Positions 3,614-11,504 of a stretch of 27,066 bases of DNA are shown here, piece after piece. Source of the DNA: an uncultured Bacteroidales bacterium (GTDB taxonomy: Bacteria; Bacteroidota; Bacteroidia; Bacteroidales; UBA932); contig CAMHRD010000001.1 in the NCBI GenBank assembly GCA_946187365.1, positions 1 to 27,066 of the forward strand, written 5' to 3'. The position numbers were made by a program, and so were the translations under genes. Numbering within the stretch: the first letter of the stretch is position 1; the number at the start of each line of letters is the position of its first letter. The notes under the pieces are model-generated. The model was not told the DNA's origin. It made no database searches and saw only the letters and a list, made by a program, of their open reading frames with translations.

Positions 3614-4834
3614 TTACTCTGCCCGCTTTACGTTTGTATAAGCGGTAACTATTGTTTTATCTAACAGAGAGTTGAACTCCTTTACTTTCTCCTCTGTAAG
3701 TTTACCCTTACGGAGAGCTTTTACCACAGGTTCAGAATCTTTAAGTATCTCCTCCTGGTAAGGATATAACTGCTGGCTATATCCCGTTCCCTCAGGATTA
3801 TAGAGAAGTGAGAAGTGGAAATATTTATTTCCGTTTCCTCTCTTTATTGGGAAGATATCTTTCTTAAGAGAGAGCACCTGGTCACAGGCATAGCAGTAAT
3901 TTTTCTTCTCTCCGCTGCCCTTTAAAAGTGAGAAAGGAATCTGTGAAGGATAGGCCATAAATACCGGAACCATAAGGGCTAACGGGCCATAACCTATACC
4001 GCACCAGAAGATGGTATTAGAACCATTTTCTCCCTTTTTAACTCCCTGGAAAATTGAGATGGCGGAGGTGGATTTTCTTGGAATGAAATCCTGGTCCATA
4101 AACCAACCGTTTGTCTGCTGAGCAATATTGCTCTCCCTCAGATCTGCCTTAAGGAGAGAGTGATAGAAGGAGCGTGAGAGTTTATCCATTATCCATTCAG
4201 GAGTAAATTTAACTCCCTCTGCGTATGCTTTATCTATTACATCAGTAGCGTTGCCGAATCTTACATATCCCATTCCCTTATCCTCTTCTCCGCTGCGGGA
4301 ATAGTTGGTTGTAATGAGGTATCCGTTAGGTGCAACTGCAGGATCATTGGCATCAAACTTTTTCCAGGTTCTGGTATTTACCTCATAGTAAGCTGCTCCT
4401 CCCTCTGCATCTATTACTCCGAAGTTTGCCTCTACTGCAAGAGGTTTTCTTATTGTATCCAACAGATTTTCAAAGTCTTGTATGGTTCTGCAAATTGAGA
4501 GTGCAAGGTACATTACCTCTCCCTCAGAATCCTGCAGATCTTTCTCTTCCGGAATTGCAAGATTGTATGAAGCGGTATTCATTATGCAGAATCCAACCTC
4601 GTTACTTCCGGCCCAGGCATCTCCTCCTCTCTTTGGAGAATTTACCAGAGCAACAAATCCATATATTCTTCCCTGGAAAAATTCAAGGCGGTTATTGAGT
4701 TCTCCGGTGTCTCTGTTTTTCCACATCAGAGGTCTTCCGTCTTTTGTACATTTACCCGTGAAAATTGCTGATGTACAAGCAAATATATCTACAGATAGTA
4801 ACGTAATAAGAAGAAGTGTAAATATCTTTTTCAT
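3614..4834 (-). CDS. Exported Ntn-hydrolase, peptidase C45 / isopenicillin-N acyltransferase-like
   Basis: Signal peptide followed directly by 'CTSAIFTG...DGRPLMWKNRD', then 'NEVGFCIMN' and 'NFGVIDAEGGAAYYE', typical of the Bacteroidales C45-like family. Confidence 0.8.
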   Translation of the reverse strand: MKKIFTLLLITLLSVDIFACTSAIFTGKCTKDGRPLMWKNRDTGELNNRLEFFQGRIYGFVALVNSPKRGGDAWAGSNEVGFCIMNTASYNLAIPEEKDLQDSEGEVMYLALSICRTIQDFENLLDTIRKPLAVEANFGVIDAEGGAAYYEVNTRTWKKFDANDPAVAPNGYLITTNYSRSGEEDKGMGYVRFGNATDVIDKAYAEGVKFTPEWIMDKLSRSFYHSLLKADLRESNIAQQTNGWFMDQDFIPRKSTSAISIFQGVKKGENGSNTIFWCGIGYGPLALMVPVFMAYPSQIPFSLLKGSGEKKNYCYACDQVLSLKKDIFPIKRGNGNKYFHFSLLYNPEGTGYSQQLYPYQEEILKDSEPVVKALRKGKLTEEKVKEFNSLLDKTIVTAYTNVKRAE

Positions 4835-4854: not shown

Positions 4855-5892
4855 TTAAAACAGAGAGTAATCTTTATATGGAGATATTCCCAAATGTTTA
4901 TAGGAGATCTCCGTTACCTCTCTTCCTCTTGGAGTTCTTCTCAAAAATCCCTCCTGAATAAGGAATGGTTCATAAACCTCTTCAATAGTTCCGGCATCTT
5001 CACCAACTGCAGTTGCAATGGTTGTAAGTCCAACCGGTCCTCCTTTAAATTTATGAATGATGGTGGAGAGTATTTTATTATCCATCATATCCAATCCTCT
5101 CTTATCTATATTGAGCGCATCAAGAGAATATCTTGTAATCTCCAGATTTATATCTCCGTTACCCTTTACCTGCGCAAAATCTCTAACTCTTCTCAAAAGT
5201 GAGTTGGCAATTCTTGGGGTTCCGCGGCTGCGGCAGGCAATCTCCTTAGATGCCTGGTCATCTATATCTATATCTAAAATCTTTGCAGAACGTTTTACTA
5301 TATTTTGCAGAGTTTCTGTGTTATAATACTCTAAGTGACAGTTAATTCCAAAACGTGCACGGAGCGGTGAGGAGAGAAGTCCGCTGCGGGTTGTGGCTCC
5401 CACAAGAGTGAAAGGATTAAGGGTTATCTGCACAGAGCGGGCACCGGGGCCTTTATCTATCATAATATCTATGCGGAAATCCTCCATCGCGGAGTAAAGA
5501 TATTCCTCCACAATTTTAGGCAGGCGGTGAATCTCATCAATAAAGAGCACGTCTCCCGCCTCAAGTGAGGTTAAAAGGCCGGCCAGATCTCCGGGTTTGT
5601 CCAAAATAGGGCCGGAGGTCACCTTCATATCCACTCCCAGTTCATTGGAGATAATATTGGCCAAAGTGGTCTTTCCTAAACCGGGAGGGCCAAAGAGCAG
5701 GGTATGGTCCAAAGACTCTCCCCTCATCTTTGCAGCCTTCACAAAGACCTTGAGGTTCTCTACAACCTTATCCTGGCCTGCAAAATCACTGAATTCCTGG
5801 GGACGGACCAGCTTTTCCATCTCTCTGTCCGATGTGGATTCTATCTCTCTCGGATTGAAATTCTCTATATTTGTGTTCTCCTCTGAAATCAT
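4855..5892 (-). CDS. ruvB: Holliday junction branch migration helicase RuvB
   Basis: '[12 protein letters not shown]', Walker A 'GPPGLGKTT', Walker B 'VLFIDEIH', 'GATTR', 'RGTPRIAN', C-terminal 'GPVGL...[17 protein letters not shown]'. Confidence 0.98.
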
Positions 5893-5899
5893 AGCAAGA

Positions 5900-5907
5900 C
5901 AAAGATA
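5900..5907 (-). promoter_or_regulatory. Bacteroidota -7 promoter element (TATCTTTG) for ruvB
   Basis: Minus-strand TAnnTTTG match 7 nt upstream of the ruvB ATG. Confidence 0.7.
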
Positions 5908-5920
5908 CTTTTTTAACCGC

Positions 5921-5957
5921 TTAAAATATAATTACTATATAAATTAAAATATAAAAA
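5921..5957. repeat. AT-rich DNA-unwinding-element-like tract containing direct repeat TTAAAATATAA x2
   Basis: 36 of 37 bases are A/T. Identical 11-mers at 5921-5931 and 5944-5954. Confidence 0.75.
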
Positions 5958-5973
5958 GTAGTTGTAGTAATAC
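5956..5973 (+). repeat. DnaA-trio-like array (5'-AAG TAG TTG TAG TAA TAC-3')
   Basis: Period-3 TAG-like repeats (3'-GAT-5') between the AT-rich tract and the tandem DnaA boxes. Confidence 0.7.
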
Positions 5974-5975
5974 TC

Positions 5976-5993
5976 TGTGGAAAGTGTTGATAA
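5976..5993 (-). promoter_or_regulatory. Tandem DnaA boxes (TTATCAACA and CTTTCCACA on the minus strand)
   Basis: Two abutting 9-mers, each one mismatch from TTWTNCACA, pointing toward the trio array. Confidence 0.75.
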
Positions 5994-6046
5994 CCCAAAA
6001 AATCCTATTCAAAATCACTTTTAAGGCATATTTCTTTTAAACCGAG

Positions 6047-6157
6047 TGTTGAAAACCTATAGATAAACCTGTTGGAAAAAAGGAGGTTTTTCCACAGAAA
6101 AAGTTATCCCCTCTTTTTTACAAAGTTATTAACATAGATAATAACAATTTATCTACC
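6047..6157. promoter_or_regulatory. Distal DnaA-box cluster
   Basis: Minus-oriented TTTTCAACA (6047-6055), TTATCTATA (6058-6066), TTTTCCAAC (6071-6079). Plus-oriented TTTTCCACA (6088-6096, exact match), TTATCCCCT (6104-6112), TTTTTTACA (6114-6122), TTATTAACA (6126-6134), TTATCTACC (6149-6157). Confidence 0.65.
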
Positions 6158-6161
6158 TTTG
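6154..6161 (+). promoter_or_regulatory. Bacteroidota -7 promoter element (TACCTTTG) for mfd
   Basis: TAnnTTTG match 10 nt upstream of the mfd ATG. Confidence 0.7.
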
Positions 6162-6171
6162 CGCCACATAT

Positions 6172-9100
6172 ATGAGCAGGATAGAAGGGATAGCCGGCAA
6201 GTTTGACTCCTTGGAAGTGGTGAAAAGATTATCCTCCTTTATAGAGGGCTCTAAAAAGGGTGACTCTGTAGTTATAAAGGGACTTTTCGGATCTTCCAAA
6301 GCTTTTCTATTGTCTTCTGCCGTCAAAAATAGCAGCTACGGCAAGATTCATATAGTGGTGGAGGATACCAAAGAGGCGGCAGAATATATGTGCGCAGATC
6401 TCTATGAGATATTTAACGGAGAGGTCTATTACTTCCCCCTCTCCTCCTCTTCCCAGGCCAGAAAAATCTCCATAAAAGACTCATCTAACAAAGTACAGAG
6501 AAGCATCACCCTCAGCGCTTTGAACAACTTCTCCAGTGAGAGTAATTCTATCGCGATAGTTACATATCCCGATGCGGTAAAGGAGAAAATAATGGCGCAG
6601 CGCGCTGTATTGGAGGGAATACTGAAAATATCTGTGGGTGAGGAGATTGAGTTTGACTCAATAAAGGAAAAACTTACCGCTGCAGGGTTTGAAAGGGTAG
6701 ATTTTGTATCAGAGCCGGGAGAGTTTGCAATAAGGGGAGGTATAGTAGATATCTTCTCATATTCAGACAATGTTCCTTACAGAATAGATTTCTTTGGAAA
6801 CAGTGTAGATAGCATAAGAAAGTTCTCACTGGATACTCAGCGTTCTAAAGAGGAGGTAAAAAGTGTGGAGATATTTCCGAACGTTTGCGGAGAGGATAAG
6901 GTGATGGCTTACGGCGGAGATACTCTCTTTAATTATGCCTCTAAATATTCCGTTGTAATTTGGAACAACACATACGAGCAGTTGGGTGAGATGTATGATA
7001 CTCATCCTTGTATATCTCTGAACGGCAGGAGTATAAAAGATAGCGCAGATGAAGAGGTACTTGAGATGAACTGCTCTCCGCAGCCAAGTTTTAACCGCAA
7101 CTTTGAACTTCTGGCAGATGATATAAGAGCACGTAAAAAGCAAGGATATCAGGTATTTATAAGTTCCTCTTCTGCAGAGCAGATTGAGAGAATAAGAAAC
7201 ATATTCAAAGATTCCGCTCATATATCAGAGGGAGAACATCCTACCTTTGAGGCGCTGGAAAGTTCTATTAACGAGGGCTTTATAAGTGCAGATGTAAAAC
7301 TGTGTCTTTATACTGACCATCAAATTTTTGAGCGTTATCACAGAGTGAAGGTAAGACGTGAGGTGGAGAGAAGCGAGCGTCTTACGCTTGAAGATCTGAG
7401 TGCTTTTCACGTTGGAGATTATGTGGTTCATATAGACCACGGAGTAGGTGTCTTTGGAGGGTTGGTAAAGACAGAGGTAAACGGAAAACATCAGGAGGCT
7501 ATTAAGATAATTTACAAAGACGGTGATGTAATTTTTGTCTCCGTTGGAGGACTTCATAAAATATCAAAATATAAGAGCAAAGACGGGGAGCCTCCTAAGA
7601 TTTACAAACTTGGAAGCGGTGCCTGGAACAAGCTGAAAACCACCACTAAAGCCAAGATTAAAGATATTGCAAAAGAGCTTATTGAACTCTATGCAAAACG
7701 TAAGGGAACAAAGGGCTTTGCCTTCTCTCAAGACTCCTATCTTCAGAACGAACTTGAGGCATCGTTTATGTTTGACGATACGCCGGACCAGGTAAAAGCA
7801 ACCAAGGCCGTTAAGGCAGATATGGAGAGTGAGAATCCTATGGACCGTCTTATATGCGGAGATGTGGGATTCGGAAAGACGGAGGTTGCAATACGTGCGG
7901 CGTTCAAAGCGGTGTGTGACGGAAAGCAGGTTTGCGTTCTGGTACCTACCACAATTCTTGCACTGCAGCACTATAAAACCTTTACGGAAAGACTGGCGGA
8001 GTTTCCTTGTAAGATAGATTATATCAGCCGCTTACGCAGTGCCAAAGATATACGTTTAATAACGGAAGATGTAAAGACTGGAAAGACTGATATTATAATT
8101 GGAACGCACCGTCTTTTGAATAAAAACATCACCTTCAAAGATCTTGGACTTTTAATAATTGATGAGGAGCAGAAGTTTGGTGTTGCCGCAAAAGAGAGGC
8201 TGCGTCAGTTAAAAGTTGAGGTAGATACTTTAACTCTTACCGCCACTCCTATTCCTCGTACTCTGCAGTTCTCACTGCTTGGTGCAAGAGACCTCTCCAT
8301 TATAAATACTCCTCCGCCAAACAGACTGCCTGTGGAGACGGAAGTTATTGATTTTAACGAGGATTACATAAAGGAGGCAATAGAGAGTGAGATAAAGAGA
8401 GGCGGGCAGGTCTTCTTTGTTCACAACAGAGTTGAAGACATTCTTGCGGTGGAGCAGATGATTAACCGCATCTGTCCAAAGGCAAAGACAATTGTGGGGC
8501 ACGGCAAGATGGAACCTTCTGTGCTTGAGAACAGAATTCTAGATTTTATTAGGGGAGATTATGACGTGCTTATCTCCACTACAATCATAGAGAACGGTAT
8601 AGATATACCTAACGCCAACACTATGATTATCAACCAGGCACAGATGTTCGGCCTGAGTGATCTGCATCAGTTAAGGGGTAGGGTTGGACGCAGCAATCGC
8701 AGAGCATACTGCTATCTGATTGTTCCGCCAATGTCCTCCATTACAGAAGATGCAAAGAGAAGGATAAAGGCAATTGAGGCCTTCTCTGAACTGGGCAGCG
8801 GATTCAATATTGCAATGCAGGATTTGGATATAAGAGGTGCCGGCAATATGTTGGGAGGAGAGCAGAGCGGCTTCATTGCAGATATGGGATTTGAGACCTA
8901 CCAAAAGATTCTCAATGAGGCATTTATAGAGATTAACGCCCAGCGGGCAGACTTTGTAAATCCAATGCAGAACACCACTCAGTTTGTATCTGACTGCACC
9001 GTTGAGACAGACCTGGAAATCTTTATTCCGGATGAATATATACCTCAGCCAACGGAGAAGATTAAACTCTATAAAGATTTGGATGCGGTTAAGGAAGAAA

Positions 9101-9441
9101 GTGATATTGAGCCGTTTATAGAGTCTTTGAAAGACCGCTTTGGTACTCCGCCGGCCCAGGTTATGGAGCTTGCAAATGTTGTTAAACTGAGACTGAGAGC
9201 AGTAAAGATTGGTGTGGAGAGAATAATTCTTAAGTCTGACATTATGCGTCTATACTTTGTATCTGACGCCAATTCAGCCTTTTACAGAACGGAGTTGTAC
9301 CAGAAGGTGATGGGCAGGATTGCAACTTTAAGGGGAGCAAAACTTAACTACAAACCTCAGGAGAAGAAACTGACGCTTACCGTTCCGGGAGTGAAAAGTG
9401 TAACTGCCGCATACGGCATAATATGCTCTTTAGGGGCTTGA
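6172..9441 (+). CDS. mfd: Transcription-repair coupling factor Mfd
   Basis: UvrB-like 'GFERVDFVSEPGEFAIRGGIVDIF', RID 'VGDYVVHIDHGVG', 'DRLICGDVGFGKTE', 'DEEQKFG', 'TLTATPIPRTL', 'QLRGRVGRS', TRG 'DLDIRGAG', C-terminal TRCF domain. Confidence 0.97.
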   Translation: MSRIEGIAGKFDSLEVVKRLSSFIEGSKKGDSVVIKGLFGSSKAFLLSSAVKNSSYGKIHIVVEDTKEAAEYMCADLYEIFNGEVYYFPLSSSSQARKISIKDSSNKVQRSITLSALNNFSSESNSIAIVTYPDAVKEKIMAQRAVLEGILKISVGEEIEFDSIKEKLTAAGFERVDFVSEPGEFAIRGGIVDIFSYSDNVPYRIDFFGNSVDSIRKFSLDTQRSKEEVKSVEIFPNVCGEDKVMAYGGDTLFNYASKYSVVIWNNTYEQLGEMYDTHPCISLNGRSIKDSADEEVLEMNCSPQPSFNRNFELLADDIRARKKQGYQVFISSSSAEQIERIRNIFKDSAHISEGEHPTFEALESSINEGFISADVKLCLYTDHQIFERYHRVKVRREVERSERLTLEDLSAFHVGDYVVHIDHGVGVFGGLVKTEVNGKHQEAIKIIYKDGDVIFVSVGGLHKISKYKSKDGEPPKIYKLGSGAWNKLKTTTKAKIKDIAKELIELYAKRKGTKGFAFSQDSYLQNELEASFMFDDTPDQVKATKAVKADMESENPMDRLICGDVGFGKTEVAIRAAFKAVCDGKQVCVLVPTTILALQHYKTFTERLAEFPCKIDYISRLRSAKDIRLITEDVKTGKTDIIIGTHRLLNKNITFKDLGLLIIDEEQKFGVAAKERLRQLKVEVDTLTLTATPIPRTLQFSLLGARDLSIINTPPPNRLPVETEVIDFNEDYIKEAIESEIKRGGQVFFVHNRVEDILAVEQMINRICPKAKTIVGHGKMEPSVLENRILDFIRGDYDVLISTTIIENGIDIPNANTMIINQAQMFGLSDLHQLRGRVGRSNRRAYCYLIVPPMSSITEDAKRRIKAIEAFSELGSGFNIAMQDLDIRGAGNMLGGEQSGFIADMGFETYQKILNEAFIEINAQRADFVNPMQNTTQFVSDCTVETDLEIFIPDEYIPQPTEKIKLYKDLDAVKEESDIEPFIESLKDRFGTPPAQVMELANVVKLRLRAVKIGVERIILKSDIMRLYFVSDANSAFYRTELYQKVMGRIATLRGAKLNYKPQEKKLTLTVPGVKSVTAAYGIICSLGA

Positions 9442-9481: not shown

Positions 9482-10213
9482 ATGGAAACAAACCTTTTAG
9501 TAGATATAGGTAATACCAACGCCAAGGTTGTATTTTACTACAACGGTACAATGGGGCGCCTGCACCGTTCCTCAGAGAGGGATGCTGTGGCCTTCATTAA
9601 AAGCGTTATAGAATCTACAAGGTATGAGGTAAATACAATAGTTGTAAGCAACGTAAGAACCTCCAACGAGCCCGTTAAGGCTGCGCTGGAACCGCTTTGC
9701 AAGAAGCTGATACTATTGGATTACAGAACTCCTCTGCCTATAGATCTGGGTTACGGGTTTGATGCAACGGAACTGGGTGCAGACCGTATTGCGGCAGCTC
9801 TGGCAGTGGCCTATATGTTTAAGGGTCAGGACTGTATAAAGTTTGACTTTGGAACCGCCCTTACGGTAGATTTTATAGACAAAGAAGGGCACTATCTGGG
9901 AGGCAATATCTCCCTTGGAATGCGAAGCCGTTTCAGAGCGTTGAACGAGTTTACAGGACTGCTTCCATACATCACTCCGGATGCGGAGTTCCCGCCTGTG
10001 GGAGTTACCACCACCGGTGCAATGAGCGCAGGGGTTGTATTCGGTCTGATATTTGAAGTGGAGGGATATATTAAGAGATACCCTCAGCATACCATAATTT
10101 TTACGGGAGGTGATTCCTTCTATTTTGCACACAGGATTAAGCACACTGTTTTTGCAACACAGGATATGGTACTGCAGGGATTGGCAATTATAGCAGATTT
10201 TTATGCAAAATAA
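9482..10213 (+). CDS. coaX: Type III pantothenate kinase
   Basis: 'LLVDIGNTNAK', 'LGADR', 'DFGTALTVD', 'GGNISLG', 'IFTGGD', 'LQGL'. Confidence 0.93.
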   Translation: METNLLVDIGNTNAKVVFYYNGTMGRLHRSSERDAVAFIKSVIESTRYEVNTIVVSNVRTSNEPVKAALEPLCKKLILLDYRTPLPIDLGYGFDATELGADRIAAALAVAYMFKGQDCIKFDFGTALTVDFIDKEGHYLGGNISLGMRSRFRALNEFTGLLPYITPDAEFPPVGVTTTGAMSAGVVFGLIFEVEGYIKRYPQHTIIFTGGDSFYFAHRIKHTVFATQDMVLQGLAIIADFYAK

Positions 10214-10214
10214 A

Positions 10215-11504
10215 ATGAGAGCAAAGAGATTGATATTATTGGCGTCTGCCTTTTTATTGGGAGTAACCCGCATGGCGGCACAGGAAGTTGATGCACTTGG
10301 AACCTTTACTCCATACTCCATTTACGGAGTGGGAGATCTCTACAACAACAACTCCGCCATCAACCTGGGTATGGGTGGTATTGGAATGGGAATCAGAGAC
10401 TCAAGATTCATAAACTATAAGAACATAGCCTCTTTAACCCAGAGAGACACTCTCTCCTTTATGTTGGATATGGGAGTGATGGGAAGGAATATGTACCTTA
10501 AGGACAAAAACACCACATCTGCCTATAACACAGGCAATATCAATAACTTCACCTTCTCTTTCCCAATTAAGAACAAGGCCTCTTTCATCTTTGGAATAAT
10601 GCCTTACTCCAGCGTAGGTTATAAGTTCAAGAGCGTGGAGGATGATGTAAACCTCATTAACAAATATGGTTACATCACCTATTACAAATACGGTAACGGA
10701 AACATCAACCAACTCTTCTTTGGAGGAGCAATGAATGTTATTAAGAACGTTTCCGTAGGAGCCTCTGCCGTTTACTACTTTGGAAGCCTTACAAACCACA
10801 GCAACATTGCCTTTACAAATTCAGATATAAGAACCATAGAGACAGGCTGGAAGCATAAGCCTCACGGCTGGGCTGCAGAGTTTGCGGCTCAGGCTTCATT
10901 CCCAATGCCAATGGAAAACACCACCCTTACGGTGGGTGCAACCTACAGAATGAAGAGCACGCTCTACGGTTCACAGAGCAGATATGCCTACGCATACGAC
11001 GGCTCAATACGAGATACCATCTCAGACAATCCAATCAAAGAGCATATAAAGATTCCGGGAAAGATTACCGCCGGTGTGGCACTCTCAAAACTGGACAAGT
11101 GGACAATAGGTTTGGATTATGAGCGCCAGGATTGGTCAAAGACAAACTTCAAAAATACTCCGGGTGTAGGATTTGACTCACAGACAGCCTCTTCCATTAA
11201 GATAGGAGGTGAATATACCCCTAACAGATTTGATATCCGTTACTTCTACAAGAGAGTCTCTTACCGTGCCGGCTTCCACTATGACAAGACATACGTACGT
11301 TTGGATGGTAAGAGTATAAACCAGATGGGATTTACAATTGGTGCATCACTGCCAATCTACCGTCTTAACAACTCAATCAACGTTGCCGTAGACTTTGGTC
11401 AAAGAGGCTCCAAAACAGGCAATTTGGTAAGAGAAAATTACATTAATTTCATTGTGAGCTTAAGTTTGCACGATATTTGGTTTGTAAAACCTAAGTTCCA
11501 ATAA
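10215..11504 (+). CDS. FadL/PorV-like outer-membrane beta-barrel, possible BamG-type BAM accessory subunit
   Basis: Signal peptide. N-terminal hatch motif 'TPYSIYGVGDL...GMGGIG', 'GIMPYSSVGY', alternating beta-strands, C-terminal 'WFVKPKF'. Alternative start at 10203. BamG assignment rests on recalled synteny and similarity and needs a search. Confidence 0.75.
   Translation: MRAKRLILLASAFLLGVTRMAAQEVDALGTFTPYSIYGVGDLYNNNSAINLGMGGIGMGIRDSRFINYKNIASLTQRDTLSFMLDMGVMGRNMYLKDKNTTSAYNTGNINNFTFSFPIKNKASFIFGIMPYSSVGYKFKSVEDDVNLINKYGYITYYKYGNGNINQLFFGGAMNVIKNVSVGASAVYYFGSLTNHSNIAFTNSDIRTIETGWKHKPHGWAAEFAAQASFPMPMENTTLTVGATYRMKSTLYGSQSRYAYAYDGSIRDTISDNPIKEHIKIPGKITAGVALSKLDKWTIGLDYERQDWSKTNFKNTPGVGFDSQTASSIKIGGEYTPNRFDIRYFYKRVSYRAGFHYDKTYVRLDGKSINQMGFTIGASLPIYRLNNSINVAVDFGQRGSKTGNLVRENYINFIVSLSLHDIWFVKPKFQ

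Follow-up and report, generated by a model that had tools for sequence, protein, structure and literature searches.

The ruvB-mfd intergenic region as the probable chromosomal replication origin of an uncultured Bacteroidales bacterium

A close described counterpart of the locus presented here is the basal unwinding system (BUS) of Bacillus subtilis oriC, in which DnaA boxes 6/7 are combined with DnaA-trios and an AT-rich region (PMC6669920, PMC8287927, PMC10721633). As defined for B. subtilis, a BUS comprises one or more DnaA boxes, three or more NAN trios separated from them by a spacer of up to 16 bp, and then A+T-rich DNA, all on the same strand, and it has been predicted in 85% of 2070 origins (PMC8287927). 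Origins located away from dnaA are common in Bacteroidetes, for example in Prevotella intermedia OMA14 (PMC4755523), and the automatic BUS calls for Bacteroidales are heterogeneous (supplement, PMC8287927). In Escherichia coli, oriC lies between mnmG/gidA and mioC, distant from dnaA. An original prediction, made from the DNA letters of a single contig, placed the chromosomal origin of an uncultured Bacteroidales bacterium in the gap between ruvB and mfd. The analysis supports this reading through the excess of DnaA boxes, the BUS layout, the uniqueness and conservation of the locus, and the GC-skew switch of relatives. Of the computational checks proposed with the prediction, all those carried out point to an origin.

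The source assembly is a MAG of 1.30 Mb in 231 contigs, 74% complete, and the window analysed is the whole of its largest contig, C1 (27 kb). Buffalo rumen is the recorded source of one relative of the same genus. As predicted, no internal non-coding stretch of the window is longer than that at 5893-6171, where 279 bases separate the diverging genes ruvB and mfd (ORF list, Pfam); the G+C content of this region is 27.6%. The window was also correctly said to contain none of dnaA, dnaN and gidA. No known RNA family or tRNA was matched in the window, and an account of the gap in terms of RNA, tRNA or sigma-70-type signals was set aside, as the sigma-70-like and terminator-like matches were weak and uninformative. 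Two ORFs of the window are without a Pfam match at E <= 0.001, one of 406 aa directly downstream of ruvB on the same strand (3614-4834, minus) and one of 433 aa at 10203-11504 (plus). The elements of the gap and its flanking genes are as follows.

4855..5892, minus strand: ruvB, transcribed leftward, away from the gap; Pfam RuvB_N, AAA_lid_4 and RuvB_C, E 2e-77
5900..5907, minus strand: putative -7 promoter element of ruvB, minus-strand sequence TATCTTTG; fits TAnnTTTG, with an equivalent kept in genus relatives
5921..5957, no strand assigned: A+T tract, 36/37 A+T, read from the sequence; proposed DNA unwinding element
5959..5973, plus strand: five trio-like triplets, TAG TTG TAG TAA TAC, followed by a TC spacer at 5974-5975, as in the published BUS layout (PMC8287927)
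5976..5984, minus strand: DnaA box 2, CTTTCCACA, reading TGTGGAAAG on the plus strand; abuts box 1 and is part of an invariant block in the six-species alignment
5985..5993, minus strand: DnaA box 1, TTATCAACA, reading TGTTGATAA on the plus strand; PWM 14.2 bits; invariant in the six-species alignment
5994..6046, no strand assigned: box-free spacer of 53 bp with short A and T runs; its sequence varies among species
6047..6055, minus strand: DnaA box TTTTCAACA; PWM 13.4 bits; conserved TGTTGA block in the six-species alignment
6058..6078, minus strand: two weak boxes, TTATCTATA (6058-6066) and TTTCCAACA (6070-6078); CCTGT core at 6067-6071 conserved in the six-species alignment
6088..6096, plus strand: DnaA box TTTTCCACA, the sole exact TTWTNCACA and the first box of opposite orientation; conserved block
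6104..6112, plus strand: weak box TTATCCCCT with 2 mismatches; not conserved in the six-species alignment
6119..6146, plus strand: most conserved block of the right half, with box TTATTAACA (6126-6134) and, after 3 nt, a second degenerate box
6153..6160, plus strand: putative mfd -7 promoter element, TACCTTTG; TAnnTTTG in relatives; overlaps a weak box at 6149-6157
6172..9441, plus strand: mfd, the transcription-repair coupling factor gene, transcribed rightward, away from the gap; Pfam UvrB_inter, CarD_TRCF_RID, DEAD, Helicase_C and TRCF

Read from left to right, the left part of the gap consists of the A+T tract, five period-3 triplets, a 2-nt spacer and two abutting, co-oriented boxes. This is the order and strand logic of the B. 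subtilis BUS, with its two co-oriented adjacent boxes, period-3 triplets and A+T tract, and the short spacer is also similar: 2 nt to the near box and 11 nt to the better one. Both the tract, with 36 of its 37 bases A or T (5921-5957), and the TAG-like triplet repeats (5959-5973) had been named in the original prediction and were found as described. The tandem pair (5976-5984 and 5985-5993) adjoins the triplets, of which TAC, TAA and TAG follow one another after the 2-nt spacer and provide, within 16 bp of a box, the minimum of three NAN trios, a pattern prone to arise by chance in A+T-rich DNA. As to the A+T-rich element beside the boxes, by nearest-neighbour free energy no duplex among the ~1.3 million 40-mers of the assembly is less stable than the one that starts at 5921. 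The gap is also the top 300-bp window of the 1.3-Mb assembly for boxes, so that a distance of 20 bp separates the assembly's strongest box cluster from its most meltable DNA.

The triplets follow a pattern of their own in the genus. Among 30 distinct species sequences, T recurs at every third base counted from box 2, with frequencies of 0.87 at -5, 0.97 at -8, 0.90 at -11, 0.70 at -14 and 0.70 at -17, and A is nearly excluded at these positions. The canonical central A of the trio (consensus 3'-GAT-5') is not conserved across these sequences, whereas the 5' T is kept. The triplets of the window, with a central A in four of five, are the most canonical among the species sequences compared. The periodic T in place of the central A, together with the changed trio-reading residues of DnaA described below, is a new, minor detail.

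DnaA-box-like 9-mers were counted with at most two mismatches to TTATCCACA. Eight were found in the gap, at 5976, 5985, 6047 and 6058 on the minus strand and at 6088, 6104, 6126 and 6149 on the plus strand; the boxes at 6047-6078 have the same orientation as the tandem pair and those at 6088-6157 the opposite one. Measured against TTWTNCACA, the gap has a single exact match (6088), as predicted, and six with one mismatch, two of which overlap, are T-rich and are of doubtful worth. With these seven, the gap accounts for 7 of the 73 exact and one-mismatch matches in 1% of the window. The predicted number of about 10 boxes is slightly generous yet fair, given eight by the first rule and seven by the second. 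Dinucleotide shuffles of the region contained 1.05 +/- 0.97 boxes and none of 5000 reached eight, and 17 G+C-matched windows of the genome held at most three each, which places the cluster well above chance. A PWM trained on 15 gaps of the clade gave TTWTCAACA as the box consensus, position 6 being A in 92% of sites; box 1 (5985..5993) is its best match. Single predicted boxes spelled with A for C are already present in the BUS table for Porphyromonas and Prevotella (PMC8287927), and the clade consensus itself is a new, minor detail. We found nothing specific in the literature on TTATCAACA boxes in Bacteroidetes.

All 13 genus genomes in which the flank is long enough retain the divergent ruvB-gap-mfd arrangement, and the tandem pair is present in each of the 13 gaps, in slightly deviant form in one (L013). 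When the ruvB-mfd gaps of relatives were compared, as had been proposed with the prediction, conservation fell exactly at the box-like elements. In the six-species alignment, conserved blocks cover the tandem pair, the boxes close to 6047, 6070 and 6088, positions 6119-6146 and both -7 elements, with diverged sequence in between. A single copy of the tandem-box pattern is present in the assembly (0.06 expected). In 61 genus genomes, its two spacing variants gave 71 matches compared with 12 for a reversed control, usually one per genome. Of 20 matches retrieved from genomes outside the derivation of the pattern, 17 sit 60-130 nt upstream of ruvB, with mfd beyond them wherever the flank allows; the other three lie in G+C-rich, coding-like sequence. 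The tandem-box signature is found about once per genome in these 61 incomplete assemblies. A better box-trio-AT locus elsewhere, which the prediction had named as evidence against it, was found neither in the assembly (74% complete) nor in the genus genomes. Three further box-rich windows of the assembly, on C138, C51 and C25, were considered as candidates, and none adds a tandem pair or an unstable tract.

With 231 contigs, the largest of 27 kb, the assembly itself is too fragmented for a GC-skew analysis, and the test that had been suggested for the prediction was therefore run on six relatives whose contigs are large. The minimum of the cumulative GC skew lay at the following distances from the tandem boxes.

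G020, 234 kb analysed: minimum 28 bp away; change-point support at 170-172 kb
G003, 264 kb analysed: minimum 4.5 kb away
G004, 321 kb analysed: minimum 4.8 kb away
G050, 400 kb analysed: minimum 4.7 kb away; noisy profile
G075, 268 kb analysed: minimum 5.3 kb away, a near-tie; change point 0.2 kb away
G014, 400 kb analysed: minimum 21.6 kb away; locus within a flat trough at 345-430 kb

The switch is thus at or near the orthologous locus: five relatives have their minimum at a distance of 28 bp to 5.3 kb, and in the sixth the locus is inside a flat trough. In all six, mean skew was negative on the left side of the locus and positive on its right side, and the cumulative curve at the locus stood 0.1-5% of its range above the minimum. 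A Fisher combination over the six gave P = 2e-6, which is overstated because the genomes are related. Skew is weak in this group, and in most genomes it localises the switch to within a few kb only. In G014, the best single change point is 38 kb from the locus. The cumulative skew on its contig C15 is flat for ~85 kb around the origin candidate, compared with a sharp V in G020 and G075; possible explanations are a rearrangement, a mis-assembly or an insertion close to the origin.

The cognate initiator is encoded on contig C64 (L001:1108-2517). It is a canonical DnaA of 469 aa with DnaA_N, Bac_DnaA and Bac_DnaA_C domains, that is, with N-terminal, AAA+ and helix-turn-helix DNA-binding domains. 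The neighbours of dnaA on this contig are an MlaD-domain gene and an M20-peptidase-like gene, and no box cluster lies beside it, so that the dnaA neighbourhood was rejected as an alternative origin. In B. subtilis DnaA, the trio is contacted by N187, I190, I193, R202 and E228 (PMC10721633). We aligned the C64 protein to the B. subtilis DnaA of the cryo-EM BUS complex (8btg), and all five positions differ, being T209, Q212, A215, L224 and V249. The ISM residue I190, usually hydrophobic, is accordingly Gln in this protein. The same positions read mostly N-V-I-S-E in other classes of Bacteroidota and variants such as Q-I-V-I-V or N-Q-S-I-A in Bacteroidia, where the R/E pair that holds the trio guanine (R202/E228 in B. 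subtilis) is generally missing and replaced by hydrophobic residues; in the genus of the window, N187, I190 and I193 are replaced as well. The changed contact residues and the periodic T suggest, by correlation alone, that Bacteroidia DnaA may have a different single-strand reading code.

Taken together, these results make it very likely that the ruvB-mfd gap is the single DnaA-dependent chromosomal oriC of this bacterium. In the proposed mechanism, DnaA from C64 would use its domain IV to bind the two adjoining, co-oriented boxes at 5976-5993, and an ATP-DnaA filament would extend from there leftwards over the triplets at 5959-5973, gripping one strand, presumably the plus strand. The filament would open the adjoining 37-bp A+T tract (5921-5957), where the helicase would be loaded. 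The boxes at 6047-6078 and the oppositely oriented ones at 6088-6157 may scaffold the initiation complex, similar to the left and right halves of E. coli oriC, and the 53-bp spacer between 5994 and 6046 might have a DNA-bending role. The ruvB and mfd promoters at the two edges would fire outwards; we speculate that they could aid melting through negative supercoiling or be repressed by DnaA.

A first alternative, which concerns these promoters, is that the gap is merely a DnaA-regulated divergent promoter for ruvB and mfd and that the true origin lies elsewhere. DnaA regulates genes in other bacteria, and both putative -7 elements are inside the gap, the one of mfd overlapping a weak box. They fit TAnnTTTG, which we take to be the Bacteroidetes-type -7 promoter element. 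Their apparent positions only 8-12 nt ahead of the start codons would imply very short leaders and would place the promoters inside the edges of the origin. A regulatory role of this kind could coexist with origin function. As the sole function of the gap, however, it would not be expected at the GC-skew switch of relatives, nor would a promoter be expected to hold the single strongest box cluster, or the least stable duplex beside a tandem pair with period-3 repeats. We therefore consider it very improbable that the gap is a regulatory site only.

Slightly less probable still is that the gap is a DnaA titration or reactivation site rather than an origin. The datA and DARS sites of E. coli are clusters of DnaA boxes outside oriC, and the gap resembles them as a cluster outside the dnaA region. 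Such a site need not sit at a skew minimum, and its boxes would be expected to lie at some distance from the skew switch, with the real origin at another locus; the gap coincides with the switch in relatives, and no second, better cluster was seen in the assembly or in relatives that are 92-96% complete. Moreover, we know of no datA- or DARS-type site with trios plus an unwinding element, both of which are present here in what is the only strong cluster found. As for the third alternative, that the boxes are a by-product of A+T-rich intergenic DNA, the box consensus is itself A+T-rich and the region has a low G+C content, but the shuffles never reached the observed count, the G+C-matched windows held at most three boxes and the box positions are conserved columns among diverged ones, so that chance is effectively refuted.

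Considered as an oriC, the gap differs from that of B. subtilis in that it neither adjoins dnaA nor is bipartite. Its boxes have A at position 6 in place of the C of the B. subtilis and E. coli consensus, its triplets keep the 5' T and not the central A within the genus, and its DnaA differs at the five trio contacts. It also resembles E. coli oriC (see PMC13643167), which is likewise dnaA-distant and monopartite, with an unwinding element at one edge, opposed box arrays and flanking genes transcribed alongside. The flanking genes are others, and IHF or Fis sites were not identified in the gap. Unlike E. coli oriC, the gap also has no GATC cluster: 5893-6171 contains zero GATC sites, as stated in the prediction, which argues against sequestration of the Dam/SeqA type. 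GATC is under-represented in the whole assembly, at 1.70 per kb compared with 3.84 expected from base composition. With the predicted DoriC/Ori-Finder origins of Bacteroidetes, such as that of P. intermedia OMA14, the gap has in common that its box cluster is remote from dnaA and coincides with a GC-skew transition, and it differs from them in being flanked by ruvB and mfd. In contrast to the heterogeneous automatic BUS calls for Bacteroidales, this genus presents one clean, conserved module.

The association with ruvB extends further. In two other Bacteroidia lineages, represented by G077 and G078, a box cluster is located within 0.3 kb of the GC-skew minimum, and the combined use of skew and boxes holds in these lineages too. 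TTWTCAACA clusters lie between a nadA-MORN-repeat-ruvB operon and rpiB in both, at L207:7228-7853 (G077:C1 ~343.2-343.9 kb) and L212:10550-11119 (G078:C1 ~50.6-51.1 kb). Among 80 Bacteroidota ruvB loci, 20 have a 400-bp stretch with at least 4 boxes no further than 3 kb from ruvB, in most cases upstream of it. Together with the G077 and G078 clusters, this indicates that the linkage between ruvB and the origin recurs well beyond the genus. No origin-like cluster was found directly upstream of ruvB in Bacteroides, Alistipes and the Muribaculaceae genome MF13079, so that the adjacency is lineage-specific. A box cluster 2 kb downstream of ruvB on a closed Bacteroidales chromosome (L072) was discarded, as it lies in coding sequence and looks like chance. 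A broader interpretation is that Bacteroidia have a variant module, built from 5'-TNN-3' units and a DnaA with altered contacts, combined with an old, class-wide oriC-ruvB linkage that would couple repair promoters to origin firing. We regard this as a tentative possibility and think it rather unlikely.

The original prediction had also raised the possibility of an undescribed origin context. This holds for the specific ruvB and mfd flanks, as we found nothing specific in the literature on origins flanked by these genes. It does not hold for the position away from dnaA, which has already been reported as usual in Bacteroidetes (PMC4755523) and is not new as a context. The gap represents a probable oriC of the ordinary DnaA/BUS type, from a lineage whose origins were so far only predicted. 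The understanding of how bacterial origins function is left unchanged by it, dnaA-distal origins being already known in the phylum. What the locus provides is a cleaner consensus than the automatic calls for the order, namely the TTWTCAACA box, tandem pairing, a spacer of 2 nt and T repeats of period 3. For a large genus of rumen and gut Bacteroidales that are uncultured, it also provides a well-supported anchor for the origin, which helps to orient assemblies, to estimate growth from metagenome peak-to-trough ratios and to design oriC-based vectors.
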